Origin: an uncultured Gammaproteobacteria bacterium
GTDB taxonomy: Bacteria; Pseudomonadota; Gammaproteobacteria; UBA4575
Direction: 5' to 3'
DNA: 64,000 bases
NCBI GenBank assembly: GCA_951812785.1
Contig: OX638335.1
Location: 135,630 to 199,629, forward strand
The notes beneath the pieces are model-generated. The model did not search any database. It was not told the origin of the DNA and saw nothing but the letters and a program-made list of their open reading frames with translations. Positions 17,807 through 54,892 of this stretch are shown here, piece by piece; positions within the stretch are counted from its first letter, which is position 1; the number at the start of each line of letters is the position of its first letter. A program made the translations under genes and the position numbers.

Positions 17807-18069
17807 AAAAGTGCCGTAATAAAGCTCAAAAAATGCTGTTGTTTGCTACCTGTTTTTAGATTGCACAAATTACACTCAATTATTAGCGCATAAAAATTAT
17901 ACACTTATGGTAATTTATGCGCAATTAATGACCTCCTATCAAAATTCATATAACTTTAACACCACTTGTGAATAAAATTCTTTAAGAGATGCTCGTATAC
18001 TTGTAGTGAGTGCTCTTCGTCAACCAACCCAAGTTAACGTTCGTTATTAGGGATAAGCCGATCTATTAT

Positions 18070-18661
18070 ATGAGTAAAACACTTATGTGTTTAGAACAAT
18101 GTAATGAGGAAATCGTACTGAAGGTTACACAAGATCAGCATCAGGAACTAGCCGATTGCTACCGCGGCGTAGAGCAGCGGGCATTTCGCATGGTGATGAT
18201 AGAAACACGCCAATTGAGTGATGCGTTGGATATAGTCCAAGATGCAATGGAATCGCTGATGAAAAGCTATATTAATAAGCCTAGTGAAGAATGGCGGCCA
18301 CTGTTTTACCGGATATTGCAAAATAAGATTAAGGATTGGCATCGCTGGGGAGCTGTCAGAGCAAAATTACACTTTTCTAAGTCTGAAAAGGAGAGCGGTG
18401 AGGATTGGTTGGAGTCTCAAGTGGAAAGCCCTCAGCCATCACCTGAGAAAAGCCTTCAAGCTGATATTAAGTATGGATGATCTACAGAAAGCATTGAGTC
18501 AATTATCTCGGCGCCAAAGGCAAACATTTTTATTGCGCGTGTGGGAAGGCTTTAGCGTGAATGAAACTGCGGATATTATGAAGTGCTCAAGCGGAAGTGT
18601 TAAAACGCATTTATCACGTGCGCTAAAATCGCTGCAAAATTTATTAGAAGACATAACTTGA
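18070..18661 (+). pseudogene. ECF-type RNA polymerase sigma factor, interrupted by +1 frameshift near 18470
   Basis: Region 2 lies in ORF 18010-18480. Region 4 ('RQRQTFLLRVWEGFSVNETADIMKCSSGSVKTHLSRALKSL') lies in a different frame (18284-18661). Confidence 0.7.
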
Positions 18662-27324: not shown

Positions 27325-28192
27325 ATGCTTAAAAGCATGACCGCGTTTGCGCGTGTCGATGAGAACCATCCAAAGGGTAATTTTGTATGGGAAGTGCGTT
27401 CGATTAATCACCGTTATCTAGAGGTTGGCTTTCGCTTGCCGGAAGAATTGAGGTCATCTGAATTTGACTTGCGCAAGCAAGTACAGAATTTATTGAGCCG
27501 AGGAAAAGTGGATTGCACATTCCGTTTGAAAGCGACTGCAAATTCTGATGTTAACTTAAGCATTAATGAAAAATTGCTCGACAGTTTATTGGAACAAACA
27601 CAAATTTTACGCAAGAAATCACCAGACATCGCTGCGCCTAATCCAGTGGAGTTGCTTAATTGGCCCGGTGTAACAGAACAAGCACAAATTGACCAATCAG
27701 AATTGACTAAAACAGCTAAACAATTATTTGATCGAGCAATTAAGTCGTTAATCAAAAATCGAAAGATGGAAGGTGATCGAATGCGTGAACTGATTGCGCA
27801 ACGTGGTAGTCAATTATAAAGTATTGGTCGCGACTGTTCGGGAATGTCGCCCTGAAGTGTTGTCTGCAATAAGAGCTAAGCTAACGACACGTATAGAAGA
27901 GATGAAGGTAGATATAGACTCCAATCGTTTCGAGCAAGAGTTGGTTATGATTGCGCAGAAGTTGGATGTTGATGAAGAGTTAGATCGTTTGGATAGTCAC
28001 TTAACTGAATTAGAAGATGTATTAGCTAGTAACAAACCGGTAGGACGACGTTTAGATTTTCTTATGCAGGAATTAAACAGGGAAGCGAACACATTGAGTT
28101 CAAAATCGGCTGACATTGTGACAACACAAGCTGCTGTTGATATGAAAGTGAATATTGAGCAGATGCGCGAACAGGTGCAGAATATTGAATGA
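27325..28192 (+). CDS. yicC: YicC-family protein, apparently split by a single-base frameshift near 27800-27830
   Basis: The N-terminal 164 aa (27325-27819) and C-terminal 132 aa (27794-28192) align collinearly to E. coli YicC (ending '...IEQMREQVQNIE'). Confidence 0.8.
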
Positions 28193-28377
28193 TTTTTCTG
28201 ATTGTTTCTAAGTCTTTCATTCCACACTTAAGTCCCATAAATAGGGGCTTTTTTATTTCGCCCTGTTTATAAGTGTCACTCTATGTTTCAAAATAGTGGT
28301 GACATAAAAACGTGCCACCACTGAAAATCAGCTAATTATGGCTTTCTGTCACCACTCATTAGTAAAGAGGGGGCAGC

Positions 28378-29657
28378 ATGGCCGCAAAACTAAACGACAA
28401 ACAAGTTAAATCGCTTCTACGCAAAGGAGAGCCGGGACGTTTCGCCGCTGGTAGCGGGCTTTATTTCCGTGTCAGCAATGAAGGCTCCGGCTTTTAGGTG
28501 GTTCGCTACACTGCCAAAGGTAAGCGCCGCGAGATTACCCTAGAGAAATACCCTAGAGAAATACCCAGAGCTATCGCTGGCGAACGCCGCAGCAGAGACC
28601 GCAAGGTTAAAAGCCGATGTTAAGCAGGGCATTGACCCGCTAGCAGAAAAGAAGCGCCCGGACGGGGTAAAGATTCAAACCGTTAACGACCTGCCCACTG
28701 ATTGGCTCAAGAACGACATAGAGAAACGGCTAAAGCACCCCCGGATTCCCCGCCGAGTTTATGAGAACGACCTGGCCCCCCGCTTCGGTGAGTTATCCCT
28801 AAACCGTGTAAGCCCCCTTGATATACGCCACGCTATTGAGGCCATAGCCGCCGACGGGCGGCCTACCGTTGCCAATGACGCGCTAGGCTACTGTAAGCAA
28901 CTTTTCCGCCACGGCATCCGCTTAGACTTGATTAAATCCAATCCGGCGGACGCTTTCACAGTTCACCATGCGGGCGGAGTCGAACAGAGCCGGAGCCGAG
29001 CGCTATCTATCGACGAGCTAAAAACGGTATTCCAGATATTCCGAGATAACTCCGACCAGTTCACCCGAGAGAACTACCTGGCCGCTGCATTGCTGTTAGT
29101 CCTGGGCGTTTGTAAAGGCGAGCTAATCGCGGCTAAATGGAATGAGTTTAGCGACGACGGCAAGCTGTGGAATATTCCCGAGGAACGTAGCAAAACGGGC
29201 GTAGCTATCACTATCCCGCTTCCTTCCGTTGCTACCGACTGGCTCCAAGAATTGCATATGAGGGCATGTGGTTCGGAGTACGTATTCCCCGCTCGTCGTG
29301 CAAGTAAGCGCCGGGGCTATATCAGTGACGATACGTTAAACCATGTACTGGCTAAGCTCTTTGGTTTAAAGGTGCGCCCTGGGGAGCCACCCGCTAACAA
29401 GCTAAGTGAGGCGGGCATGGAGCACCTTGACTATTCACGACTTACGCCGAACGTGTCGAAGTTTATTAGCGGGTGCGGGTGTTGCCGGTCACGTTGCCGA
29501 GCGCTGCCTTAACCACAAGCTAAAAGGCGTTGAAGGTATTTACGACCGCTACGACTACCTCGACGAACGCCGCGAAGCATTACAAAAAATAGCCGACCAA
29601 CTCGCGCCAGCTATCAACCCTAGATCGAACGTAACTAGCTTTAGAAAGGGGGCTTAA
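28378..29657 (+). pseudogene. int: P4-type tyrosine integrase with three or more lesions
   Basis: N-terminal DUF4102-like 'LYFRVSNEGSGF' is followed by an in-frame TAG at 28495. A 13-bp tandem duplication 'ctagagaaatacc' x2 at 28541-28566 shifts the frame. A further shift near 29400 puts the catalytic C-terminus 'HDLRRT...GVEGIYDRYDY' in a separate frame. Confidence 0.85.
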
Positions 29658-29661
29658 GATC

Positions 29662-30246
29662 ATGGCTATGGATAACGAAACAGGCCGATTATATGAGCCA
29701 TTGTTACACCGTGGCGGAAAGATCATAGAGCGTAAAAATGTTTCTCTAAGCGATTCGGGCCGCTATATGCGCTGGATTGCCGAAACGCTGGCAGATTCAT
29801 TTGACCGCAAGCGCCGCCCTCCGTACCAGCTTCTAATGGAGCTAATCCCTGTGTTAATGGAAGCAGCCGAAAAAGCGGAACTTGCGGACGAATTGCACAG
29901 GCTTAGAGAGAATAACGTAGACTCTACGCGAGCCTTTGAAAAGGCAAAGGACGAAGCGCTTAACTCGTTGCTTTCTGGCTTCGGCTTGATAACACAAAAA
30001 GGTGGCGCAACAGGGAGCGCGGAAAAACAAGAGCGGCAGAGGTCGCCGGCTAGCTGCTTCTTTCTGGGAAGTCATAAAGTTTATGGACGAACTCAAGAAC
30101 GGCAGCGAATCCGGGCTTTCTACTCGGGGAGCAGCAAAGCAAGCCGCCGAAGCCTTCGGGATTGGCGAATCGACGGCCCGCCGCTACTGGACTCAATACG
30201 AAGAACTTCTTTTGCAAAACGAAGAGTAAGAACCACGCTCCTATAA
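29662..30246 (+). CDS. Hypothetical island protein; C-terminal HTH-like segment is in the overlapping +1 frame (30002-30229)
   Basis: ORF track only: a 194-aa ORF and a 75-aa ORF overlap in different frames. They may be one frameshifted gene or two genes. Confidence 0.3.
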   Translation: MAMDNETGRLYEPLLHRGGKIIERKNVSLSDSGRYMRWIAETLADSFDRKRRPPYQLLMELIPVLMEAAEKAELADELHRLRENNVDSTRAFEKAKDEALNSLLSGFGLITQKGGATGSAEKQERQRSPASCFFLGSHKVYGRTQERQRIRAFYSGSSKASRRSLRDWRIDGPPLLDSIRRTSFAKRRVRTTLL

Positions 30247-30329
30247 CTGGCTCAAAAGGTCGTATTTTTTCGAGCCAGCCGCCCCCGCAACAATGAGCAC
30301 CATGTAAGAACAAACAGCATGGTGCAGAA

Positions 30330-30527
30330 ATGAATACACAACAGCAAACCAACCCCGACCGCATTATCGCGCGCGCCCAATTCCGCGAGCTTACTGGTGT
30401 AAGTCGTACTACAGAATATTGCTTAAACCAGGAAGGAAAGCTCCCCGCCCTCGTTGAAGTTAACGGGCGCGTCCTGGGCTACCTAGAATCCGCTTATAAC
30501 GCTTGGCTTAAGCAATATTCAGCTTAA
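30330..30527 (+). CDS. alpA: AlpA-family phage regulatory protein (excisionase-like HTH)
   Basis: 65 aa '..FRELTGVSRTTEYCLNQEGKLPALVEVNGRVLGYLESAYNAWL', the AlpA/Xis HTH pattern. Confidence 0.7.
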   Translation: MNTQQQTNPDRIIARAQFRELTGVSRTTEYCLNQEGKLPALVEVNGRVLGYLESAYNAWLKQYSA

Positions 30528-30576
30528 GGGACGTTGAGCGATTAGCCAAGCTCCGTAACGCCGGGAGAGCGTTCTA

Positions 30577-32157
30577 ATGCAGCAGCTCCCCGAGGCACTA
30601 CAACCACTAGCCGTTTATCCTCAGTTCATACTGTGGAAGTTGGCAGAAAGAAACGGTAAGCGCGTAAAGCTACCCATTGATTATAGAACCGCAGCCGTTG
30701 GCGATGCGCCCGTGTTTACAGCGGCCATAGACAGCCACTTGAGCAGGTGCGACGAGAACCAATAACAAGCGTTACTTATCGCACTGGCCACCAGCTACTA
30801 GCTCCCACTCAGCAGGCCGAACACTTCGCGGGGTGCGTGTATATGCGTGATCGCCACCGGGTATTTACTCCCGACGGTGATCAACTCAACCCTGAACGAT
30901 TTAACGCCACCTATGGCGGCTATAGCTTCATTGTGAGCGAAGACAGCAAGACGACGCGTAAAGCTTGGGAAGCCTTTACCGAGTCACAAACCGTTAGCTA
31001 CCCGTGGGCGCATGGTCCCTGCTTCCGTCCGGAAACGCCAACGGGGGAGATAATCACCGAGGGCGGGCGGCTTGTGAATATCTACGTGCCTGCTCAAGGC
31101 GAGAAAATAGCCGGTGACGTTACGCCGTTCCTAGACCACGTAAAACGAATGCTACCGCAAGAAAGCGACCAAGAAATATTCCTTTCATATTTGGCCGCTT
31201 GCATACAGAAACCCGGCGTTAAATTTCAATGGTGCATTGTAATGCAAGGCGCGGAAGGTAACGGGAAAACCGTTTTTTACCATGTGTTGGCCTATGCCCT
31301 GGGCGAGCGTTACGCACACCTACCGAATGCGGCGGAGATAACCAACCCTTTCAATAGCTGGCTAGAACAAAAGCTAATTATCGGTATTGAGGAGCTACAC
31401 ACGGCGGGCCGCCAAGAAGTGGTCGACACACTTAAGCCAATGATCACCAATAAGCGGATAGAAATACACGGTAAAGGCCAGGACCAGAGAACCGGAGACA
31501 GCCGCGCTAACTTCATTATATTTTCAAACCATTAAGGACGCGGTACTTAAAAGCGAAAACGACCGCCGCTATTGCGTGTTCTATACGGCACAGCAGGAAC
31601 CGGGCGACCTCGAACTTAACGGAATGAACGGCGACTACTTCGCCAGCTTGTACGAGTGGTTAGCGTGTGGCGGCTTCGCCCACGTTGCCCACTACCTAGC
31701 TAGCCGCACCGTAACCGTGGACGTAATGGCCCGCGCTCCTGTTACCAGTAGTACCGCCGAGGCCGTCCGTTCTAGCTTAGGTGTAGCCGAGCAGATTACC
31801 CAAGAAGCTATAGACCTTGAGGAATGGGGATTCCGTGGCGGCCTAATCTGCACCAAAGCAGCCGGGGAGCTACTGAAAGCCAACGGCAAGAAACTAAGCC
31901 CCCAGAAAGTGGCGGGCGTACTGGTAAACCTTGGCTACATCAAACACCCAGCACTGGTGAGCAGTGACGGAAAGGTAAGTATTGACGGAGTTAAGCGCCC
32001 TTTATACGTAAAGCGCGGAAACCTAGCCGCCGGACTGTCTTCCCCTACAGCCGTGGCTGCTACTTGGAAGCGGGCACAGGAGGAAGGGCGCGCGGTTCCA
32101 ACTAGCGGAGCGTTCCGAGCTAGTTCCATCTTCTCGGAACCCCCGAAAGCCCCGTAA
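30577..32157 (+). pseudogene. Prim-Pol/D5-like primase-helicase (P4 alpha-like) split across three frames
   Basis: N-terminal Prim-Pol 'YPQFILWKLAERNGKRVKLPIDYRTAA' (30577-30765). Central helicase Walker A 'QGAEGNGKTVFY' (30747-31535). C-terminal part 31576-32157. Frameshifts lie at ~30750 and ~31535. Confidence 0.7.
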
Positions 32158-32568
32158 TTACTAGCTTTAACTCTCTTTAGTTCCAAGGTTCCAAGTAATT
32201 AATAAATAAGAGAGAGAAGTATAGAGAGAGGGCGTAGCGGCTACCCCTTTGGCGGCTACGGGAAGAACTGGCGGATAAGTGGAACCACTCGGAACCGCAG
32301 TGCAAAAACGGCGGAAGCCCAATAGTGACGGGGCTTGTAGCGGTTCCGTCCCGAGTTAATCAACTCGGAACTTTTAACAAAATATTTAACCCGGCCCAGT
32401 TAGCGGCCAACTAATAAACCGGAGCGGTAAAAAATGACCCCGAAAGAGCAACAAGCATTTTTGAAGATGATTTAAAGACATTGAAGCGATGCGGGCCGAC
32501 GTAGCAGAAATGCAAGTCACCATTAACTCAATGATCGGAGCAAACGACAACAAAGGAGATACGGAATA

Positions 32569-33202
32569 ATGAACAACTTACAGAAGATTCAAAACTTAGC
32601 CGCTAGCGTCCGTGATAGCTTGGCAACCCTGAAACCCTCTAGCGGCCTTGATGACCTCGACGCTATCGCCAAGGAGCGCTCCTTTATTGCGCGAAAAGCT
32701 CGACCTGCTCACCGACGCAGAAAGTACAGAGCGTGAAAAACTCGAAGCAGAAGAGGCCGCCGCCAAAGCAAAACAGCGCCAGGCTCTACTCCTAGATATC
32801 GCGAAGCAAACCGAAGCGGCAGCGATCAACTACCAGGAGCTAACCGACCGCGCCACCTCGATGGTTAGGGAGCTGGTAGCGGTACTGGCTAAACGTGAGC
32901 AGGTATTCAGTCGTCAATCCGTTGGTCTGAATGCGCCGGAAATCCGCGAGCTTTTGAGCCAGGAAGAGCAGAGCGAATTATTGTCGAAGCTAGATAGCTC
33001 GACGGTTGGCGTTTACCCCGGCAATTTTGGTAATAACTGGCGCGAAGCGGTAGCCCTAACCTGTGCAGATAACGCAAACCTACGCCGCGACCTTTACGAG
33101 CTGGTAAAAACCCCCGCTCAATATCAAGACAACCCGCTAGCCGGTGGGCGTCCATTGCTGGCAGACACAGCCCGCAGCCTAGCCGCTAGCGAACCGGCAT
33201 AG
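32569..33202 (+). CDS. Hypothetical coiled-coil island protein; the N-terminal 26 aa are in a different frame from 32648-33202
   Basis: 'MNNLQKIQNLAASVRDSLATLKPSSGLDDLDAIAKER' (frame 1) continues plausibly into '..LLREKLDLLTDAESTEREKLEAEEAAAKAK' (frame 2). Confidence 0.3.
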
Positions 33203-33445
33203 CATACCAAGACCCCCACTATGGCAGCCACACCAGCTCATTCAAGGGGCGACCGCTATCAAGCAGACCTAAGCGCCCCCGGCAAAGTAATTGACCTAAA
33301 CGCCGAGTAACAACCCCGCCCGCTTCGGCGGGTATTAATGGAGACAAGACAATGACAGACCTTAAAGCCAGTAACCCCGCTCTTTACGAATTGGCCCGAC
33401 GCAACGGCGTGACAATGCCCACCAGCAGCACAATACCTGCCAACC

Positions 33446-33975
33446 GTGGAACCTATGACGTTAGACGAGCTTAAGCAGTCATACCCAGGCTTATACGTTG
33501 AATGTATTGCCCTCGGCGTCAATCGTGAAAGAGAGCGCATTCTGACTACGTTACCTGCAAGCGGTAACAGCGCCCGCGAACGCTTTGCCCTTGAGTGCGT
33601 CCGCGATGGTAGCGCCATGACAGAGACCGCAAAAGCTCGCTATCTCGTTATGACTATGGAAGCGGCCCGCAAAGATAACGCCAGCGCCTAGGTAGTAGCC
33701 GCTATCGAAAAGCGCCTGGGGGGTGAGTTATGAATCTTGAACAGCTACTACAAGAATCACCAGAGCTTTACGCGGCCATTGTTGAAGAGGGTATCCGGTT
33801 GGAGCGAGAGCGGGCACTCGCACACCTCGACACGGCTCGGTGGTACGACTCATTGCAGGAAGCAACCGAGGCAATACGGACAGGTGAACCCGCTGAATCA
33901 GACGAAGCGCTAAACCACCATTACGCAGCCGTTGAGGATGAACACGACAAGCTAGGGCGTTTGAGGGTGCGCTAG
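33446..33975 (+). CDS. Two tandem paralogous small ORFs (81 aa each; 33446-33691 and 33730-33975)
   Basis: 'LDELKQSYPGLYVECIALGVNRERERI' versus 'LEQLLQESPELYAAIVEEGIRLERERAL' — similar sequence and length, so a tandem duplication. Confidence 0.3.
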
Positions 33976-34235
33976 TGGACGATCTACAGCCAGACTGTAA
34001 CGAGTACAAAATGGCCTACCTAAGCCGCTTTATGAGTGACCGGGCTATGACAGCTAAAATCCCTGGAGACTTCCAGAGGCGGCAGGTAGCGGAACGGCTA
34101 TGGGGGCAGCGAGCTTGGGCGAAAGGTGCGGGGCGTTTTGTCTACGTGTGTATGCCCGGTACGGCACAGATCGCTAGCTTGAAGCGGCCAGAAATTTCAA
34201 CATCAATATACGGGGAGTTTGCACCGTGCACATAA
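33975..34235 (+). CDS. Hypothetical island protein (86 aa)
   Basis: ORF only. The codon bias fits the high-GC island. Confidence 0.25.
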   Translation: MDDLQPDCNEYKMAYLSRFMSDRAMTAKIPGDFQRRQVAERLWGQRAWAKGAGRFVYVCMPGTAQIASLKRPEISTSIYGEFAPCT

Positions 34236-34636
34236 TCAGCAAAGCCGAATTTGCGAGACAAGCGGGTGTTACGTCGTCGGCTATCTCTAAGGCATTAAAC
34301 ACCGCGCTAAAAGAAGCGCTTAGCGGAGACGGGATAGACGCCGACCACCCCGCCGCAATTCGATATTTATCCAGGTGTGGTCATGTAGGGCGGCCACATG
34401 GTGGCGGGAAATCAGACCTAGCGGCCTATGTGGTTTCCCGCTCGGACGAGCTACGAAAGCTAGAAAGAAACTTAACTAATGAAGCAGCCCCACTGGTTAA
34501 GAGTATTTCAGATAATCTTTTTCATTTAGGCTTTGAAGCGGACAGAATGAAAGCTGGAGACCGTAGCGAACGGATCGCATTCATTAAAAGGAATCTCGAC
34601 TACCTACAAAGCTTAGCGGGGGCGAGCCAATGCTAG
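34226..34636 (+). CDS. Hypothetical HTH-containing island protein (136 aa)
   Basis: N-terminal 'MHIISKAEFARQAGVTSSAISKAL' is HTH-like. Confidence 0.3.
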   Translation: MHIISKAEFARQAGVTSSAISKALNTALKEALSGDGIDADHPAAIRYLSRCGHVGRPHGGGKSDLAAYVVSRSDELRKLERNLTNEAAPLVKSISDNLFHLGFEADRMKAGDRSERIAFIKRNLDYLQSLAGASQC

Positions 34637-35030
34637 TAACCGCCACGCTAACGCTATTAGAGCTTTCGATACACTCCGCTTGCTATATGGCTCTAGGTCT
34701 CATGTTCGGCTACGTCTTAGGGGTGGCCGACACATGGAACCGATAACCCTAGAATTGCAGAGCACCACAAAAGAAAGCCCAGAGAGGTCGTTACTCGTAG
34801 AAGTATTACTCTTGGCGGTTGTTGATTCGCTAGACGGGGAGGTGCGTAAAGTAAACGACTACGACCAGGAGTTAGCCAGAGTATGGCTTGAGCGCTCCCC
34901 AGTGTGCCGGTACTACTGCATACTTGTCGATATAGATTATCAGGCCATGATTGACCGGCTAAATAAACACTGGCGACATTGCTAGCACCATAAGCTAAAA
35001 TTACCGCATTTTACTAAGGATAAACTGCTT

Positions 35031-44048: not shown

Positions 44049-44124
<76 letters not shown>

Positions 44125-45639: not shown

Positions 45640-46146
45640 ATGCGATATGGTTATGTGCGAACGTCGACTAATAAGCAGCTAACTGACAGGCAAGTGAATG
45701 AGCTTGAAGGTGAATGCGATGAGGTCGTGATTGAAGATGGTGTGTCAGCGTGAAAGAAAAACCGTCCCAAATTCCAAACTTTGCTTTTAAGTTTAAAATC
45801 CGGCGATGAATTTGTTGTCATTGCGTATGACCGCACATTTCGATCAGTAATTGAAGGTTTGCATACTGTAGATGAATTAACAGCACGAGGCGTGATATTA
45901 AAATCACTAACGCAAAAACTTGATGTTACGACACCTGACGGGCGTTTGTTTTTTACTCTGACGATTGCCATTGGTGAATGGGAAGTGAATAATCTGAGTG
46001 CGCGAACAGTCAGCGGCCTAAAGGCCGCTATTCAGCGCGGTGAAAAATTAGGTCGGCCTCGTAATGGTGAAGACCTGCGCCAGCGCAAGAAATACCGTGA
46101 CACTGAATTGACGGTACAAAAAGAGACTATCCGAACAAATGCTTAA
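45640..46146 (+). pseudogene. Small serine recombinase (resolvase/invertase family) with in-frame TGA at ~45748
   Basis: RBS 'aggaga'. 'MRYGYVRTSTNKQ' (catalytic Ser), '...EDGVSA*KKNRPKFQTLL...DEFVVIAYDR...' collinear with Hin/resolvase. The stop replaces a conserved basic residue. Confidence 0.65.
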
Positions 46147-46619
46147 ACACTTAAAGATAACCCTACACGCAGATGCGCAGACATCTGTATTAACCCAGTG
46201 TAGGAATGGATGGAATTAGAAATCACTATGGGGCTGGCATGAGTGATACAAATGACATCAAGAGTCTCAATGATATTCCGATAGAAATCTTGAGAAAAGA
46301 AGGTTGGGCGCTTGATCATGTTTTTGTAGGCGAGCTTGAAAATACGATGCCTTCTTAATGCCTTGAGGTAATAACCAAACCAGCGCATATCAAAATCATC
46401 CGTGAATACATCATCAATTTCAGGAAGAGGGTAAGGCTGCCCTAGCTCATCGACAATTTCACCGTCATAGTCTCGAATGGCATCAGCTATTGCATCTAAC
46501 CAATCTCTTCGGCGAATCTCCATATTGCGCACCGCAATCCAAAGTCGATGGTAGTAGCTAGTCGATCTCAATTCTTCCTCGGTTGCCACCCTTATTATAT
46601 TTCTTTCCTTAGCCAACAT
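46143..46619 (-). CDS. Hypothetical protein (158 aa), convergent with the recombinase
   Basis: ORF only. Confidence 0.25.
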   Translation of the reverse strand: MLAKERNIIRVATEEELRSTSYYHRLWIAVRNMEIRRRDWLDAIADAIRDYDGEIVDELGQPYPLPEIDDVFTDDFDMRWFGYYLKALRRHRIFKLAYKNMIKRPTFFSQDFYRNIIETLDVICITHASPIVISNSIHSYTGLIQMSAHLRVGLSLSV

Positions 46620-46841: not shown

Positions 46842-48940
46842 TTATTTAATCGGAATCTCAACTGATAATTCATCACCAATTTTTGTCGCACCCTTTTTAG
46901 CAATTATTTTAAATTTAATTTTTGTGTTTGATTCAAGATTCCGTAAAGTAAACTTTACAGACGAATTATCCTTTACTGTCACAATTGATCCGGGCTTTAA
47001 TACGATTGAAGTATTAGAAATTTTATCTTTAGCTGAATCCATGTCGGCACCATCAAGAGTAACTTCTACATAATCTGCTAACTTAATCTTATTTACTTTC
47101 TCAAAATTAAAGTGAAGAGTGATTGAACCAGCACCCTTGTCCTGTGTTACTTTGCTTGCGCCAGAATTAACTTTTACTAAATGTTTTAAAGGTGTAACCA
47201 ATCTTTGGTAGAAAATATCTTCATATATTTGATCATTATTTAATGACAAACTACTGCCTATAACTTTATTGGAGTCATCTAAATAAATATCATTGACCCC
47301 TAGAGCTGCCAACGAAGGGAAATCAAGTGCTAATGAGGTATTACTATTACTAGGCACTAAAGTTAATGGTCTCGTAATATCTTTCAATTGAATTTTTAGC
47401 TCTGCTGTTATTTTCGAAGGGTTTAAATTTTTCCCATTTTGTAAAATGATACTAGATTTTGTCTTTGTGTTATCATCAAGCACAACTAATTGACTAGATG
47501 GTGGTAATTGCTGCTTATTAATATTCAATTCAAACTTGGTCGCTGAATATGGAAATTTTTGTGTCATTGATACCAGGTCTAGCCAAATGTTTTTATGATA
47601 AACCCCACAGGGCAAAGTCCTGCCGCTACAGGGACTAACCTTTGTATTTTCAGCAATTTTATTCAAGATACGCTCAAAACCATCATAGTTATTCCCATAT
47701 ATTTTACCTAACAGATAATGAACCTCTGCGCTTTTTGGTTTTGTTTCTATATTCAAATTGCTCATCAATATGCTTGTTGCTTCAGCAATAGCATTTGCCT
47801 CAGATTTTAATAATGGTAGTTCTATACCTGTTTCCGCGTTTCGAGCCGACCATCTTTTTGTAGCCATTCGTCATCAGCAAATAAAAGTAATGTGACATAA
47901 TGAGTTCTTGGAATTGCAGAATAAGCCGATGATGCCTGAGTTGCTGCTCCAAATCGGGCTGAAATTGTATTATCTGTAATTTGTCCGACAGTGAATATAC
48001 TATTTTTATCATTAGCTAGTATGCTATCAATTTCCTGCGCACGGCGTCCTAAGCCAAACCCGGTTCCTACTCCAGTTCTTACCGCTGACAAAGCTACAGA
48101 CAGTGCGCGTATCGATTCTGCAACACGATTGCTATTAGAGTTTTCTAGGTTATCGGTCACAAAAATTGGCAGGACAATAACTCTATCTGGGACTGACTTT
48201 TCAAATGATTCGTCATCAACTGCCGATAACAATGAAATAATACTTTTTGATTCGTTTGGTTCATTTTGCGCAAAAAAACCTAACACTGAATATATGTCGT
48301 AAGGAACATTTCTAGCGTAAGGTAAAACTTGGAGTTGGAGTCTTACTAGAAAAGCTGTTTTGTTTTTATAAGTTGCCACATCCTCGATATACCTATTAAG
48401 AATTTGAACTTCTTGGTAAAGAGATGTTGCAGCGGTATATTGTAATATTGGATCATTTGCAATTTCCTTTGGTCTTTCAACGTTAGAAACTGGGGCAGAA
48501 TTATTTTCCAAGATCTTAGTTTGTTCAGGTACTTCGACTGATCCTTTCTCTTTGCTATCTAGAACAGTTGTGGTGGTTGTCGTTGTTGGCTCTTTCCCCG
48601 TAGTTTCCTGTGTTATTGCTTCTATTGATTCTGATGATGTCTTTTTTGATCCTGCCAAACCTATAGATACAGAGCCAACTAATGCATCTAAAATTCGTTG
48701 TTCGGCAATACTAGTTGTAGGTAATGACTTAGCAAGTGCTTGTTCTGCTGTAATAGTAAAATTTGGTGTTAAAGGCTCAATATACTTTTCTCAAGGCGCT
48801 ACTTGAACAATAGACAAATTTACAGATGCCAATTGGCCTTGGCTCTCAACTGTTACAGACTTGGTTTTATTTGTATTCGTCGCGCACCCAATACACACGA
48901 ACAGCCCAAAGCCGACACACACTATTGTTTTTATGATCAT
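46842..48940 (-). pseudogene. Large lipoprotein (~700 aa if contiguous) with in-frame TGA after the signal peptide and an A5-run frameshift
   Basis: 'MIIKTIVCVGFGLFVCIGCATN...SIVQVAP' then TGA in the same frame (rc of 48791-48793), then '..EKYIEPLTPNF...TTTTTTT...' (47822-48658 frame). Adding one A at the A5 run ~47855 would fuse it to ORF 46842-47867. Confidence 0.45.
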
Positions 48941-49023: not shown

Positions 49024-50198
49024 TTGGATATAATTTGTTATATGGCAGGTTTTACTAACCATCGTTGGTCTCAAATCTTTGATAAATTAAACAGCAATCC
49101 TAGTAAATTTGGATTACCAGTCCGTAGAAATAAGTCTATTGATCTAGGATCATTTAATGCGCTCAAGCTTGGAGATGTTTCAAATAGCTCAAAAAGATGG
49201 GATTTCCTTACGAGAATAGCTTCAGGATTTGACTTGTTGGCAATTCAAGAGGTTATGGATGATCTTTCTGGTATTCGCCGTCTCCATAAATCTTTAGGTT
49301 CGGGATATAAACTGATTATTTCGGATACCACCGGCGCAGCACCGGGTTCGAGAGGCTTAAAAGAACGTTTGGCTTTTCTTTATCGAACATCTCGGATTGA
49401 GCTAAAAGAACTTGTCTCTGATATCACTTACGATCGCTCAATTATTATTTCTAAGCTCAGAGAAGATATAGATATTTGGAATTCTTTTTTCCAACACATT
49501 GATGATACAAATACTGACAGGGTGAAAAACAAAAGTCACTTGCAGATTTCTCGCTCCCAGAATTTTTAACTTTTATTCGCACTCCTTACTGCGCTTCATT
49601 TTCTATAAAACCAAAAAATAATGCTAAACCGATAGAGTTTCTTGGTGTCACTGCACATACTTTACATGGCAAAAGCAAGAGCGAGCGCACACGTGAATTT
49701 TTTGCATTATTAGAATGGCTAGTACTTAGGGCTAAGTCAGCTAACACAATGTATTTCAAAAATATGATATTGATGGGTGACCCAAATATACGGCTATCTG
49801 ACATTACCCAAACCCTTAATAACTTAAATAGCTCTTTACTCTCGGGTAGAGATGATAGCCAAGTTAATTTCCCATTTTTACATGTTCACCCAGATCAAAG
49901 ATCGCTTTTTGGTACAAATGCCCGAAGCGATGAAACATTTGACCATATTGCTTTCTTTATTGACCGGAATGGACGTCATCTACCATCAACAGGTGACAAT
50001 CGACAAGCAGGTCAACAGGGTCTAAATGACTATGATTTTGGTGTTTTCAATTTTGTTGAACTCATTTCTCAGGCTATTCATAACCTAAGCTTTCACGAGC
50101 TTACAAAGGCTCAGCAAAAGAGTCTTGTCAAAAATACAAAGGCCGACATATCGGACCACTTACCTATATGGGTAAGACTTCCTATTTCTGGGGCCTAA
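49024..50198 (+). CDS. Endonuclease/exonuclease/phosphatase (EEP) family protein, frameshifted at an A-run ~49530
   Basis: N-terminal 'FDLLAIQEV' and C-terminal 'SDHLPIWVRL' EEP motifs. The middle ('NAKPIEFLGVTAHTLHGK') is open in the second frame from 49515. Confidence 0.55.
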
Positions 50199-50329
50199 CC
50201 ACTCCTGCCAATATCTTTGGTGCAATACTAAATGCAGTTGCAATACAATGAAATTCACTTCACGCTTCACGCAAGCTGTGCTTTGTAATACCACTCAAAA
50301 ATTTAAACAATTTTTGGTGATTACAAAGC

Positions 50330-50650
50330 GCTTGGCAAGCAAAACCCGCTGCGCGTTTTGCGTTGCATCATTTCCGGCTTATGGCTTAGTTCGGCATCAA
50401 GCCTTCTTGCGCCAGCTATATCAAATTCCACGTTTACCCAAGTAGTTTGGATAAACATGCAATTCGATATAGAAAAAACTCTCTCGGCGAGGCCAAGGGT
50501 TCCATGCGACAGTGCGCCCTACGGGCTTTGCTTTGCATGGATACCATGCTCTTAATTTTGGATCGCTTCCCGATGGGTCAAGGGGCCGAGTTCTCGCCAA
50601 AGGCTGCGAGCCGCACCAACCCCTTGACCCATCTTGTAGCAAGGAATTTG
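50330..50650. other. GC-rich (~52%), highly self-complementary element within an AT-rich island; candidate structured RNA or relic
   Basis: Perfect 14-bp inverted repeat 'gatgggtcaagggg...ccccttgacccatc' (50581-50632) enclosing two mini-hairpins. Further stems: 'ccatgc...gcatgg' and 'gcaaaac...gttttgc'. No convincing coding frame. Confidence 0.3.
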
Positions 50651-50780
50651 GTTAAATCCCAGATTATTAACCTGAGAATTCTCGAAAATCGTCGATAAAC
50701 CTATGAATTTTATCTATTTTGCGCTACCTTAGCACTCTGTAACATTTATTGTTATCAGCATACAAAGAGTCAAAACTGTT

Positions 50781-51461
50781 ATGGCAAATTTGCTTAAAAC
50801 ATCTACATTTCTTGGCACGCTCAACGAATTTGAAGAAAAACACGCACCCAAAGAGCTTTACTATGAGGGCGATGCAGATCTTTTACATGAAGGCATAAGA
50901 ATTTCTATAGTCGGTTCTAGAAAAGCATCTGACGAAGGCATTCGCCGAGCACGTAGTTTCGCGACTGCATGTGTAAATCATGATATTACAATTGTGAGTG
51001 GTCTCGCCGATGGTATCGACTCTATTGCTCATGAGACTGCGATTGCACAAAGTGGCAAAACGATAGCAGTTTTAGGTACTCCTTTAGACAAAGCTTACCC
51101 GGCTAAAAATAAAGATTTATTAGAGCGCATAAAGAAAGAGCATCTAGCAATTTCACAGTTTCCTATTGGCTACCCCTTCAAAAAAGAAAACTTCCCAAGA
51201 AGAAATAGGACAATGGCCTTAATTTCAGACGCAACGGTGATAATCGAGGCAGGTGAAAAAAGCGGTACTCGTCACCAAGGCTGGGAAGCACTTCGTTTAG
51301 GCCGTCTTGTATTTATCATGAAAAATATAGTAGATGATGAAAACTTAACATGGCCGAAAGAAATGATTGAATATGGCGCACAGGTATTAAGCCGGGATGA
51401 TATGCCTGATGTTTTTTACGACATTCCAAGTTTTACAGCTGGGGCTTCGGTTGCTTTCTGA
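50781..51461 (+). CDS. shosA: DprA/Smf-like SLOG-domain protein (ShosA-like)
   Basis: DprA Rossmann-domain motifs 'IVGSRKAS', 'IVSGLADGIDSIAHETA', 'TIAVLGTPLDKAYP', 'FPRRNRTMALISDATVIIEAGEKSGT'. It lacks the SAM and winged-helix domains of true DprA. Confidence 0.65.
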   Translation: MANLLKTSTFLGTLNEFEEKHAPKELYYEGDADLLHEGIRISIVGSRKASDEGIRRARSFATACVNHDITIVSGLADGIDSIAHETAIAQSGKTIAVLGTPLDKAYPAKNKDLLERIKKEHLAISQFPIGYPFKKENFPRRNRTMALISDATVIIEAGEKSGTRHQGWEALRLGRLVFIMKNIVDDENLTWPKEMIEYGAQVLSRDDMPDVFYDIPSFTAGASVAF

Positions 51462-52098
51462 AATTGAATACGCAACATTTTGTAATTACTCGCCTAGAGG
51501 TACATCAGATTTATCTATTCACTCTAAAAAAGTTTGTGGGGCATTCAAAAACGGCAACATTGACACTTTAAATTCCACACTACCATACTTTAGTCAGCCA
51601 TCTGCTACTATTCTGTCTGCCTTTCTTAATCCACAAATAACATTAGTGCCAGTTCCCAGAAGTGCTCCATTAACAGATGGTGCCTTATGGCCATCTTTAG
51701 TAATAGCAGAATTCTTACAACGAAACGGATATGGACACGAGGTTTTACTTTGTATTAAAAGAAAAACTGCTGTTAGAAAGTCTTCTAGTTCTGCAAGCGG
51801 CAACAGGCCAGAAGTAAGCGAACATTATGAAAGTCTTGAAATAGAGCAACAACTCTTAGTGCCTGATGAGATTACTCTGATTGATGATGTTTTAACTCAA
51901 GGCAGAACAACTATTGCTTGCGCCTTAAGACTTGAAGAAGTTTTTCCAATGACAAAAATTCGAATTTTTGCAATGATGAGAACTCAAGGCTTTAAAGATG
52001 ATATTGACGAAATGGTGGAACCTATTTGCAATATTATAAATTATTATGAACCAAGCGGAAAACATATAGAAAAGACGATTAGCCTCATTGCTTTTTAG
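51397..52098 (+). CDS. shosT: Phosphoribosyltransferase-domain protein (ComF-like PRTase; ShosT-like)
   Basis: PRPP-binding motif 'ITLIDDVLTQGRTTIACA'. N-terminal Cys/His-containing segment. Overlaps the upstream gene by ~50-65 nt. Confidence 0.6.
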   Translation: MICLMFFTTFQVLQLGLRLLSEIEYATFCNYSPRGTSDLSIHSKKVCGAFKNGNIDTLNSTLPYFSQPSATILSAFLNPQITLVPVPRSAPLTDGALWPSLVIAEFLQRNGYGHEVLLCIKRKTAVRKSSSSASGNRPEVSEHYESLEIEQQLLVPDEITLIDDVLTQGRTTIACALRLEEVFPMTKIRIFAMMRTQGFKDDIDEMVEPICNIINYYEPSGKHIEKTISLIAF

Positions 52099-53335
52099 AA
52101 AAATTAGAGAACATAAAAAACATGCTCTTTTGACTATTTAGCTTCAACGTATCGCTTGGTTTAATTGTGTTAGCCTGTCTACGCTTTCCACCTGCTTCTG
52201 TAATAACCTCCATATCTGGGTTCTCAATAATCATTTCATGAATATCATCGCTATGAGCAGGTGTTTTACTATATGCTGTCGCATAAAAATCTTGGACTAA
52301 CAAAGCATCCCCAGATTCCGCAATAAACCTTGGAATATCATCGTATAAGTTTTCTTTAGCAGATTGTCGTGAATCATCATCAAATAAATACAACATGCCT
52401 TCCTCTTTGGGATCGTAAGAAAGCATATGCAAACCTGCGCGACCAAAGTGAGCCTGCGGCAAAGCATTTCTATGAAGAATATCGTTATAAGCTTGTCTTG
52501 CACGATATCTATTTGCAAAATGCATAAACCAGTATCGCCAACCCTTAGGATTCTTAATTGAGAATGGGCTTACATAAGACGCGCAATCTTCTAAATGCAT
52601 ATAAACAATTTTTTCAGCTTCCCCCATCCATTGCTTCTTTTCTAAGAGATTGGCATCAGATAACAAAGCATCAATTTTGGTTTTTACTTCTGGTTCTAGA
52701 GGCACACCAGATGCTTCTTTCTTTTGTGATAGAAATGTAAGCATGCTGCTAATCATGAACGTAAGCAGTATTTCTGCTGAATCCCATGACTTCATAATAT
52801 CTTTTATAATGTCAGTAGAAACAAGTGAATACCCGCATTGATCTAAATTAAAAAGCACATTGCTACATCTAGCAGAAAGCAATTTCTGTTTTACTTGAGG
52901 GTAGAGCAGTTCAAATTTTGAGTTAAAAAACTCTAATTCAACATATAGATTTTCGTTCTCATCTTTGATCGCTGCTAGGAAGGGGGCAGTGTTAGCGCGA
53001 AGCAGTTCTATAGCTTGTTTATTCTCGTCATTTAATATTAGCAAACATTCAATTTGAATAGGACGAATGCCTTGAGATTGCCGATGTAGGTTTATCTCTT
53101 TTGTTGTATTTTTTAAAACATCTAAAAATATAAGTGGTGAACCAAAACTGTTGCACTTATACAATCCCGCGCCACAAAACCCATCTACAATTGCCAATCT
53201 AAATTTTTCTCTCTTTGGCAGTTGGCATCTAATAATTAAGTATTCTCTAAAATATTGCGCAAGAATTTTATGCTTTTTCTTTGTATGATCTTTGAGTTCG
53301 GGACCATGTTCCCAATCATAATTTTTTGTCTCCAT
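52085..53335 (-). CDS. tcmP: Three-Cys-motif partner protein (TcmP-like)
   Basis: 416 aa. Immediately downstream of and co-directional with the three-Cys-motif gene. Family recalled from memory, not confirmed by search. Confidence 0.5.
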   Translation of the reverse strand: METKNYDWEHGPELKDHTKKKHKILAQYFREYLIIRCQLPKREKFRLAIVDGFCGAGLYKCNSFGSPLIFLDVLKNTTKEINLHRQSQGIRPIQIECLLILNDENKQAIELLRANTAPFLAAIKDENENLYVELEFFNSKFELLYPQVKQKLLSARCSNVLFNLDQCGYSLVSTDIIKDIMKSWDSAEILLTFMISSMLTFLSQKKEASGVPLEPEVKTKIDALLSDANLLEKKQWMGEAEKIVYMHLEDCASYVSPFSIKNPKGWRYWFMHFANRYRARQAYNDILHRNALPQAHFGRAGLHMLSYDPKEEGMLYLFDDDSRQSAKENLYDDIPRFIAESGDALLVQDFYATAYSKTPAHSDDIHEMIIENPDMEVITEAGGKRRQANTIKPSDTLKLNSQKSMFFMFSNFSKKQ

Positions 53336-53352: not shown

Positions 53353-54168
53353 CTATGCAACACGATTTTCAACTATAGGCATTTCATCCCAAGTTCTCCC
53401 TCTATATTCACGTCCATTCGCTTTTTTAGAACGCTTTTGATTATCTTTGCCCCACGCGCCCCATTGTTTGAAGAAAAAAGCTGTTTTATATTTTAAACAT
53501 TGTCTATGAATTTGATCGATCCATTCTTCTTTTATTGGCCTTGCCTTATATCCACTCTCACCCCCAACAATTGCCCAGTGAATTTTATTAAGATTTACGG
53601 CACTAACTTTATCTATTAGTGGCTCAAAGGAAATAAAACGAATTGCAGCTGGTGTTTTACGTAAACAGTTAATTCTATTCGCAGCATCAGCATTTTCGAC
53701 ACTAGTGCCTAACCATACATTGGGCAGCACCAATTTAATCTTATTTGAGACCAGTTCTTTCATGCGCTCAGGGCGTTTAGTTAGAATCTGGTAGTTATGC
53801 TGCGGTGTTTCTTGCATGACACGCCACACTGATATCACAAACTCATCACTAACTTTCTCATGAAACAGATCACTCATTGAATTCACAAATATTTTGCGAG
53901 GCTTTTTCCACTTATACGGAATCAGTAGTGACGCTTCATCTTCTCTGACAACACCATTCCAAGTGACGTTTCCCCCTTTTTTTTGTGTAAGCCCTTTATA
54001 TTTATTAACCCCCATTGCTTCTAATCTTCGCGCCATCTGCATGGCATAGCAGTGCTTACAACCAGCGCTGGCTAGAGAACAACCTGCTACAGGATTCCAA
54101 GTCGCATCTGTCCATTCAATTTGTGTTTCTGCCATTTTATTCTCAAACGAGCCTACAATTAGACGCAA
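53353..54168 (-). CDS. Three-Cys-motif protein, phage Gp37/Gp68 family (DUF5131)
   Basis: 'WNPVAGCSLASAGCKHCYA' Cys triad near the N-terminus; '...WAIVGGESG...' Gp37/Gp68-like core. Confidence 0.6.
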   Translation of the reverse strand: MRLIVGSFENKMAETQIEWTDATWNPVAGCSLASAGCKHCYAMQMARRLEAMGVNKYKGLTQKKGGNVTWNGVVREDEASLLIPYKWKKPRKIFVNSMSDLFHEKVSDEFVISVWRVMQETPQHNYQILTKRPERMKELVSNKIKLVLPNVWLGTSVENADAANRINCLRKTPAAIRFISFEPLIDKVSAVNLNKIHWAIVGGESGYKARPIKEEWIDQIHRQCLKYKTAFFFKQWGAWGKDNQKRSKKANGREYRGRTWDEMPIVENRVA

Positions 54169-54365: not shown

Positions 54366-54479
54366 TTCATTGCTCTTCTTGAATTTCTGCAATCGTTCAT
54401 TGCGAAGATCTCGTCTTTGAGTAGGTGCAGTGCTAGATTCTTAGCACCACCGCGCTGATTGCCCTGCAAAATCATTTAT
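54366..54479 (-). pseudogene. MobA-type (ColE1 MbeA-like) relaxase, N-terminal 37-aa stub
   Basis: 'MILQGNQRGGAKNLALHLLKDE' parallels the MbeA N-terminus 'MIVKFHARGKGGGSGPVDYLLGKD'. It terminates after 37 codons. Confidence 0.35.
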
Positions 54480-54892
54480 CATCACTCACTTTCAAGCCAA
54501 GAGCCATCAGTAAGGTATCTCGCATAATCAATATGGTTTCATGCGCTTCTTGTAGTTGCCGCTCTGCATCTTGGGAGACATCTAATGTTCCCATGTTCAC
54601 TGATTTTGCGAGTTGATTTAGATTTGAAGAAAGTCGGGATTGCCCCAGCGCAGCTAGCAACGTTGCATACTGCTTTTGTTCAATGTGGGGTTTTCTGTGT
54701 ATACGACGCTTTTGTTCCTTATCTTTGAGTAAGCATTCCCTTATACTATGTACCAAGTGGTTTGTTACCCGCCAATTGTTCTAAATAAGCGCGTTCCTCT
54801 TCGGTAAAGCGAAGACAGAAAGGAGCTGCCCGTTTCTTACTCTTATATGTAGAGTTAGATGCTGAGCGAAATGTGGCATAAACCGCGCTCAT
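54472..54892 (-). pseudogene. mobC: MobC-family mobilisation protein, frameshifted
   Basis: N-terminal 'LRFTEEERAYLEQLAGNKPLG' (one frame) and C-terminal 'HSIRECLL...LSSNLNQLAKSVN' (another frame); both are MobC hallmarks. Confidence 0.55.

Follow-up and report, generated by a model that had tools for sequence, protein, structure and literature searches.

A DprA-like and phosphoribosyltransferase gene pair, probably a short form of ShosTA, on an island of an uncultured gammaproteobacterium

ShosTA and the gene pair of the window

The subject of this analysis is a DprA-like gene followed by a phosphoribosyltransferase (PRTase) gene in DNA from an uncultured Gammaproteobacteria bacterium (lineage UBA4575; GenBank assembly GCA_951812785.1, contig OX638335.1), and the closest described system is ShosTA of Escherichia coli (APEC O1, KTE181 and P2-like prophages; PDB 8ZVA-8ZVD and 9VZO). 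The window means the whole stretch of 64,000 nucleotides (nt) that was analysed, positions 135,630 to 199,629 of the forward strand of the contig, and coordinates are counted from its first letter unless a related locus is named. In E. coli, the toxin ShosT consists of a PPase-like domain (residues 1-164) and a PRTase domain (165-424), and the antitoxin ShosA of a SAM domain (1-94), a Rossmann domain (95-313) and a tail (PMC11961720, PMC12961424). The ShosT double substitution D331A/D332A abolishes toxicity, and K280E reduces or abolishes it (PMC11961720, PMC12961424); the PPase mutant R56A is only marginally less toxic, and the PRTase domain carries most of the toxicity (PMC11961720). The arginines R139 and R234 of ShosA are essential for the binding of single-stranded DNA (ssDNA) as well as for antitoxin function, an R261E ShosA is still functional, and the RecA interface of the protein is an AlphaFold 3 prediction backed by mutants (PMC12961424).

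We put the probability at about two in three (0.66) that the pair in the window belongs to the ShosTA family as a short form, that is, a two-gene, type IV-like toxin-antitoxin (TA) or abortive-infection module located on a genomic island. The domain identities, both folds, the conservation of catalytic and ssDNA-binding residues, the strict pairing and order of the genes and their mobile or defence-associated location were all computed here. As in E. coli ShosTA, the two co-directional genes form an operon in which the PRTase gene comes after the DprA-like gene; the pair also occurs in mobile or defence contexts and matches the same broad PADLOC models. It is a recognizable relative of a known system and not a new kind of system, and existing defence hidden Markov models (HMMs) already recognize it. 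An earlier note on this DNA, made from the sequence alone, had likened the architecture to ShosTA; this is borne out for the core domains, but the two accessory domains, the SAM domain of ShosA and the PPase-like domain of ShosT, are absent from the pair.

Gene 1, the DprA-like (ShosA-like) gene, occupies positions 50781-51461 on the plus strand and encodes 226 amino acids (aa), as delimited from the open reading frame (ORF) list, Pfam, PADLOC and a predicted model. The Pfam family DNA_processg_A (PF02481) covers residues 20-203 with an E-value of 1.5e-56, and the SLOG match is weak and below threshold. Because the ORF cannot be extended in the 5' direction, there is no room for SAM or winged-helix domains, and the product is a bare DprA Rossmann/SLOG domain, just as the earlier note had described it. 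E. coli ShosA, in comparison, is 328 aa long and has, besides its SAM domain, an additional helix at the C-terminus; in the structure comparison, H. pylori DprA is an example of a DprA without a SAM domain. The relatives of gene 1 are uniformly about 226 aa long (about 120 close homologues among the matches listed) and always paired with a PRTase gene, and public records call them 'DNA-processing protein DprA'. With identities to the nearest relative of 75% for gene 1 and 61% for gene 2, the gene 1 family is the better conserved of the two.

The HMM comparison that the earlier note had proposed was positive for both genes, with E-values of 4e-74 for gene 1 against the broad PADLOC ShosA model PDLC03961 (248 bits, model positions 95-287 of 303; an unspecific model, as discussed below) and 7e-24 for gene 2 against the broad ShosT model PDLC03962 (model positions 72-215 of 237). 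The E. coli ShosA and ShosT reference proteins, retrieved from a P2-like phage (phage 10W), match these models with 2.4e-85 and 1.8e-53, respectively, but they also match PDLC02997 and PDLC03012, which the window proteins match weakly or not at all, the E-value of gene 1 against the E. coli-type ShosA model PDLC02997 being 2e-20. Unlike a competence DprA, gene 1 lacks the SAM and winged-helix domains and scores below the cut-off of the dprA equivalog TIGR00732 (166 bits, 5.5e-49, against a cut-off of 191) and below that of the equivalog NF008007 (131 bits against 495).

The AlphaFold (AF2) model of gene 1 has a predicted local distance difference test score (pLDDT) of 91.2, and its superposition gave template-modelling (TM) scores of 0.82 with S. 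pneumoniae DprA (3uqz), 0.80 with H. pylori DprA and 0.76 with E. coli ShosA (8zva). A sequence search of the PDB with gene 1 likewise returned canonical DprA with an E-value of 1e-27 and ShosA with 1.5e-19. The two key ssDNA-binding arginines of E. coli ShosA are kept: R47 and R141 of gene 1 align with ShosA R139 and R234, and both are invariant in the gene 1 family. The position of ShosA R261 is taken by W168, and the basic residues K109, K111 and R116 lie near the positions that align with the RecA contact of ShosA. By analogy with E. coli, the gene 1 product is a putative antitoxin and a putative ssDNA binder.

Gene 2, the putative toxin gene, encodes a short, ShosT-like PRTase of 215 aa when read from the TTG at 51451 (51451-52098, plus strand). 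The binding loop for phosphoribosyl pyrophosphate (PRPP) that the earlier note had pointed out, ITLIDDVLTQGRTT, can be read off the sequence at 51871-51912 of the plus strand and contains D145 and D146 (numbering from TTG 51451). Across 61 diverse members of the gene 2 family, D146, G151 and R119 are invariant, and D145 and T149 are nearly so. The aspartate pair of the PRPP loop and the K-S motif of E. coli ShosT are both kept in gene 2, where D145/D146, K110 and S111 align with ShosT D331/D332, K280 and S281 in an hhalign comparison that is itself a low-probability match, and we infer from its place in the same loop, rather than from an alignment, that R119 is the equivalent of ShosT R285, a further PRPP-binding residue on which toxicity depends. 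The whole protein, like its family (about 205 to 220 aa), consists of the PRTase domain only, in comparison to the 424 aa of E. coli ShosT with its N-terminal PPase-like hydrolase domain. A toxin of this reduced form is credible because the toxicity in E. coli lies mostly in the PRTase domain and not in the PPase-like domain.

Gene 2 has no match in Pfam or NCBIfam, the ComF models of NCBIfam included, and the four-cysteine zinc finger of ComFC is absent from it. All of the 61 sampled family members match the ShosT model PDLC03962, the best of them with 2.6e-26. A PDB search with the sequence of gene 2 and with the family profile produced only weak PRPP-loop matches to APRT, PyrR and OPRT. Since these sequence searches of solved structures missed both ShosT and ComF, structure prediction was needed to link gene 2 to ShosT. 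The predicted model (pLDDT 92.6) forms a single PRTase-fold domain with residues 210-215 disordered, and the top two matches in a Foldseek search against all solved structures were H. pylori ComF (9e-5) and E. coli ShosT (1.2e-4), the likeness to ComF and ShosT being clearly above that to housekeeping PRTases.

Two other kinds of defence system share components with the pair. PsyrTA/RqlHI also combines a DprA-like antitoxin with a toxin carrying a PRTase domain, and gene 1 matches the PADLOC PsyrA model with 1.7e-30; however, PsyrT carries a RecQ-like helicase, the ShosA score of gene 1 is far above its PsyrA score, and gene 2 has no PsyrT match, with only one of the 61 family members matching PsyrT, weakly. 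Type III-A retrons likewise have a PRTase-fold effector in a defence context, but no reverse transcriptase domain was found among the neighbouring ORFs and no retron match in Rfam; the PADLOC model PRTase_III-A is matched weakly (1.6e-05) by two of the 61 family members and not by gene 2 of the window itself.

Gene arrangement, relatives and proposed mechanism

Both ORFs lie where the earlier note had placed them, gene 1 at 50781-51461 and the longest ORF of gene 2 at 51397-52098 (plus strand, 233 aa from ATG 51397), but the overlap of about 50 to 65 nt that it gave was not upheld. The upstream in-frame ATGs at 51397 and 51409 produce overlaps of 65 and 53 nt, respectively, whereas the 167 homologues of gene 2 that were found are mostly 208 to 209 aa long and begin with MLSEIPY. 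This N-terminus (M/L/V-LSEIPY) corresponds to LLSEIEY from the TTG at 51451 in the window, so that on the homologue alignment the overlap with gene 1, whose stop codon TGA is at 51459-51461, is 11 nt (51451-51461, plus strand). The comparison was extended to 43 related loci that hold both genes (L001-L038, L047, L051, L062, L072, L073 and L079-L082), in 27 of which the overlap is exactly 11 nt; the aligned start codon of gene 2 is TTG in 22, GTG in 15 and ATG in 6, and thus TTG or GTG in 37 of the 43, across phyla. Gene callers likewise give the 11-nt overlap in loci L001-L003 and L080-L082. As a side observation, automatic gene calls frequently choose an upstream ATG for the paired PRTase gene. 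The overlap together with the weak start is probably a form of translational coupling that holds the gene 2 product below the gene 1 product. In E. coli ShosTA, by comparison, the two genes are one base apart. A scan for promoters and terminators found no excess of sites over shuffled sequence.

In each of the 43 related loci with both genes, these are neighbours and stand in the order of ShosA and ShosT in E. coli; since this is so in every such locus, the pairing is not due to chance. Among 68 genome loci, a DprA-like ORF of about 226 aa lies directly 5' of the PRTase gene on the same strand in 38, which are counted among the 43; three further close relatives begin at a contig end so that their upstream side is missing, and the remaining loci, which hold more distant relatives, have no DprA-like ORF within 6 kb. 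The short PRTases of the gene 2 type form a family of 764 clusters (50% identity, E<=1e-30), almost all between 205 and 220 aa long. Among species-representative genomes, those with DprA-paired relatives belong to Alpha- and Gammaproteobacteria, Bacteroidota, Acidobacteriota, Planctomycetota and one archaeal (Cenarchaeum) metagenome-assembled genome (MAG). None of the phage records encodes a relative of gene 2.

The contexts of the paired relatives are those of mobile elements and defence loci. On a 16.8-kb Paracoccus plasmid the pair lies directly 3' of RepA-ParA and 5' of a Type ISP restriction-modification (R-M) gene, and on a Roseivivax plasmid it lies between an IS3, a Tn3 element, resolvases and a TIR protein. 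An intact homologue of the pair is, for example, that of Paracoccus sediminicola plasmid p6 (2271-3567). Elsewhere it is found near QatB, a KAP NTPase and ArdC, near ParDE, near EcoRII/Vsr/Dcm together with an integrase, near HigBA, and near terminase/prophage and SRA-McrA genes. Unlike DprA and ComFC, the two genes form an overlapping operon on plasmids and islands and not at competence loci. The full DprA architecture and the competence-operon synteny whose presence in relatives would, according to the earlier note, have spoken against ShosTA were not found: the relatives are about 226 aa long and paired with the PRTase, and no gene 1 relative was located in a competence operon or in a conserved housekeeping synteny, the relatives being on plasmids, in prophage-like regions and on islands.

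We infer the toxicity, the neutralization, the trigger and the phage defence of the pair from E. coli ShosTA. By this analogy, gene 2 would encode a PRPP-dependent phosphoribosyltransferase whose action on some acceptor would perturb nucleotide metabolism and damage or block DNA replication, and the gene 1 product would offset this effect by an indirect route, probably one of ssDNA binding and of recombination or repair and not one of binding the toxin. Gene 1 would be translated first, with gene 2 coupled to it by the 11-nt overlap and the weak TTG, so that the toxin would stay below the antitoxin. Infection by a phage may then tip the balance to the toxin and abort the infection, either because host shut-off leads to loss of the antitoxin or because ssDNA intermediates of the phage titrate it away.

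The 3' end of gene 2 and the surrounding island

The 3' end of gene 2 was checked by comparing a three-frame translation with about 100 C-termini of the family. The family ends in SGKTxRxP, with the R and the P nearly invariant, and gene 2 of the window ends in SGKHIEKTISLIAF. In the frame as assembled, the reading is KHIEKTISLIAF, and gene 2 overlaps the convergent TcmP gene by 14 nt; the +1 frame gives KTYRKDD and then the stop codon TAG at 52080-52082, and it matches the GKTxRxP of the family. The aberrant end (52059-52098, plus strand) fits a deletion of 1 nt in the A-run at 52059-52062, where one added A would restore the family C-terminus. The frameshift touches only the last seven or so residues; the family-invariant residues of gene 2 are intact up to about residue 203, and gene 1 is of full length. 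The frameshift may be an assembly error or real decay, and unless it is an assembly error the copy in the window may be impaired by it.

Broken genes are found at other places in the window as well. An EEP/MnuA-like nuclease gene 5' of the pair is split into ORFs at 49024-49569 and 49749-50198 (plus strand), where the frame shifts close to A-rich sequence at about 49525-49540, and the downstream frame runs on through 49570-49750. The core gene YicC (27325-28192, plus strand) is split into overlapping ORFs that correspond to its N- and C-terminal halves, and a core gene for an extracytoplasmic function (ECF) sigma factor (18010-18661, plus strand) is likewise split into overlapping ORFs; the frameshifts in these two genes are not at long homopolymers. 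The split core genes suggest either an indel-prone assembly or genome decay, and they bear on how the frameshift of gene 2 is to be read.

The island that holds the pair begins after MutY and the tRNA-Phe gene directly following it (44049-44124), and a search of the window for a repeat of the tRNA-Phe 3' end was negative. The island contains a truncated serine-recombinase (resolvase) ORF (45781-46146), the broken nuclease gene and a weak MobC-like ORF (54472-54756), as well as three ORFs on the minus strand (46143-46619, 46842-47867 and 47822-48658; 158, 341 and 278 aa) that have no Pfam or PADLOC match, the two larger ones having none in NCBIfam either. The convergent neighbour of the pair is TcmP, a three-Cys-motif partner protein (TIGR04474, GMT-wHTH; 52085-53335, minus strand), next to which lies the gene of a DUF5131 protein (53353-54168, minus strand), and these two match the PADLOC candidate systems PDC-M30 (A 5e-25, B 2e-98) and PDC-M41B. 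With this adjoining candidate system and the position after the tRNA-Phe gene, the region has the defence-island character that the earlier note had ascribed to it. Outside the island, a block at about 28000-35000 has a G+C content of 0.49 to 0.56, compared with about 0.40, and a strong positive AT skew; it contains an integrase fragment (28928-29512), a VapE/DUF5906 primase-like ORF (30747-31535) and several short ORFs without a family. A foreign element has probably integrated here and may be degraded.

The earlier note had also pointed to an unexplained structured element beside the pair. The spacer at 50200-50780 does fold much better than its shuffles (z -9.4 for the minus strand and -5.6 for the plus strand) into several separate hairpins, the strongest of which (50558-50633) has 80 to 86% identity to a non-coding hairpin of 64 plasmids. 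The hosts of these plasmids include Xanthomonas, Pseudomonas, Aeromonas, Klebsiella (a 3-kb plasmid) and Agrobacterium (pAt3), 54 of the 64 are typed as mobilizable or conjugative, and about 60 nt of the hairpin are almost invariant. A second piece of the spacer (50331-50404) matches Rhizobium plasmids. No Rfam family was found at gathering or at permissive thresholds for the window or for three plasmids with the shared hairpin, and a literature search on the hairpin sequence returned nothing relevant. The element occurs only once in the window, phage records contain no match to it, and it is absent 5' of the pair in the other loci, where the spacer measures about 100 to 300 nt. It is not part of the ShosTA-like module, and we take it for a relic of a plasmid or integrative and conjugative element (ICE) backbone, perhaps an origin of transfer (oriT) or a single-strand initiation site.

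Weighing of the readings and significance

Several observations weigh against the assignment to ShosTA. The sequences of the pair are highly divergent from those of the E. coli systems that have been studied, and gene 2 matches the broad ShosT model only, with no match to the E. coli-type model PDLC03012; an hhalign comparison of the gene 2 family with ShosT gives a probability of 24%, and the family profile run against the PDB does not recover the solved ShosT chains by sequence. On the antitoxin side, the ordinary Smf/DprA of E. coli K-12 (locus L075, 2437-3561, minus strand) matches the ShosA model PDLC03961 with 3.5e-58 and 195 bits, so that this model does not separate a defence antitoxin from an ordinary DprA, and the assignment therefore rests on the ShosT match, the structure and the pairing. 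The RecA-contact residues K200/R206 of E. coli ShosA are not conserved in gene 1, where A108 and L114 are aligned with them, nor are the dimer-interface residues L181/F182, which are aligned with A89 and Q90, and deletion of the SAM domain, which gene 1 is without, destabilized E. coli ShosA (PMC12961424). To these is added the assembled C-terminus of gene 2, which is frameshifted and has lost the nearly invariant arginine.

A further objection comes from 21 loci (L039-L046, L048-L050 and L052-L061; for example, L040, 3374-6642), mostly in Steroidobacteraceae MAGs, in which a relative of gene 2 of about 210 aa and about 30% identity stands alone. In a conserved synteny, these solo PRTase genes lie directly 3' of the genes for a type IV secretion coupling protein (T4CP) and a MobA/MobL relaxase, their products still match ShosT at about 1e-14, and no DprA-like ORF was found within 6 kb of them by a profile search even at E<=1. 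A DprA antitoxin is therefore not a constant partner of this PRTase family, and the absence of a DprA-like ORF from these loci weakens the idea that every member is a toxin in need of one. Apparent fusions of 300 to 580 aa between an N-terminal domain and the PRTase, which were seen in loci L039-L061, were rejected as stop-free read-through of high-GC DNA, the real proteins being of about 210 aa.

The solo PRTases behind relaxase genes, together with the reports that in S. pneumoniae and C. jejuni ComFC is an ssDNA binder and an interaction partner of DprA (PMC9005727), keep alive another reading, which we regard as unlikely: that the pair is not a TA system but descends from the competence partners DprA and ComFC and handles ssDNA for mobile elements. 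The two proteins would bind ssDNA that is entering the cell or being replicated, shield it, pass it to RecA and aid the establishment or the recombination of a plasmid or ICE. The occurrence of the pair on plasmids is consistent with this, as is the position of the window pair 3' of a hairpin common to mobilizable and conjugative plasmids, and gene 1 is as close or closer to canonical DprA than to ShosA both in the PDB search (1e-27 against 1.5e-19) and in superposition (0.82 against 0.76). However, gene 2 has neither the zinc finger of ComFC nor a match to an NCBIfam ComF model and does match the broad ShosT profile at 7e-24, the plasmid-type hairpin is not found with the pair at other loci, the rep/par and R-M genes around the pair on a small plasmid and the other TA or defence neighbours are typical of addiction or defence cargo, and translational coupling through a weak start suits the control of toxin dosage. 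The broader proposal that short pairs and solo PRTases alike are a mobile-element version of DprA-ComFC, processing ssDNA during transfer or replication and not acting as TA systems, seems to us rather improbable; under it, the plasmid-type hairpins just 5' of the pair in the window could serve as an oriT or as a single-strand promoter from which the pair is expressed once the element has entered a cell as ssDNA. In a weaker form of the same proposal, the substrate of the PRTase could be ssDNA itself or nucleotides set free from it, and the DprA-like protein would sense the ssDNA.

A different doubt concerns only the copy in the window, which may be an inactive remnant: a ShosTA-like module in decay, its toxin gene already damaged at the 3' end, in an island that is itself degraded. 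The 1-nt deletion that replaces the GKTxRxP C-terminus, the splitting of the adjoining EEP/MnuA-like nuclease gene by a frameshift at an A-run and the resolvase fragment in the island would all fit such decay, but the core genes YicC and ECF sigma factor are split too, which makes assembly indels as likely as decay, and the damage is confined to the very end of gene 2, its invariant residues and the whole of gene 1 being intact; we hold this, too, to be improbable. That the two genes are simply the ordinary competence genes dprA and comF of the host is very improbable. The dprA model match of gene 1 and the database name of its homologues would agree with such an origin, but the TIGR00732 score falls short of the cut-off, gene 1 is without the SAM and C-terminal domains, no ComF model recognizes gene 2, the relatives are scattered over phyla, plasmids and islands and never in a conserved housekeeping synteny, and the window copy itself is in an island after a tRNA-Phe gene.

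With the pair read as a short-form ShosTA, the finding is incremental and leaves the picture of what ShosTA is unchanged. Should the short form act as E. coli ShosTA does, the PRTase domain alone would be a sufficient toxin and a bare DprA Rossmann domain a sufficient antitoxin, which would narrow down where the acceptor substrate and the mechanism of neutralization are to be sought, and the 11-nt overlap with a TTG or GTG start would be a simple feature for the control of dosage. The solo PRTases in the backbones of conjugative elements raise the question of whether the PRTase clade is always toxic. Under the same condition, the subfamily of short forms, which is large and broad, may be a commoner form of ShosTA than the one that has been studied.

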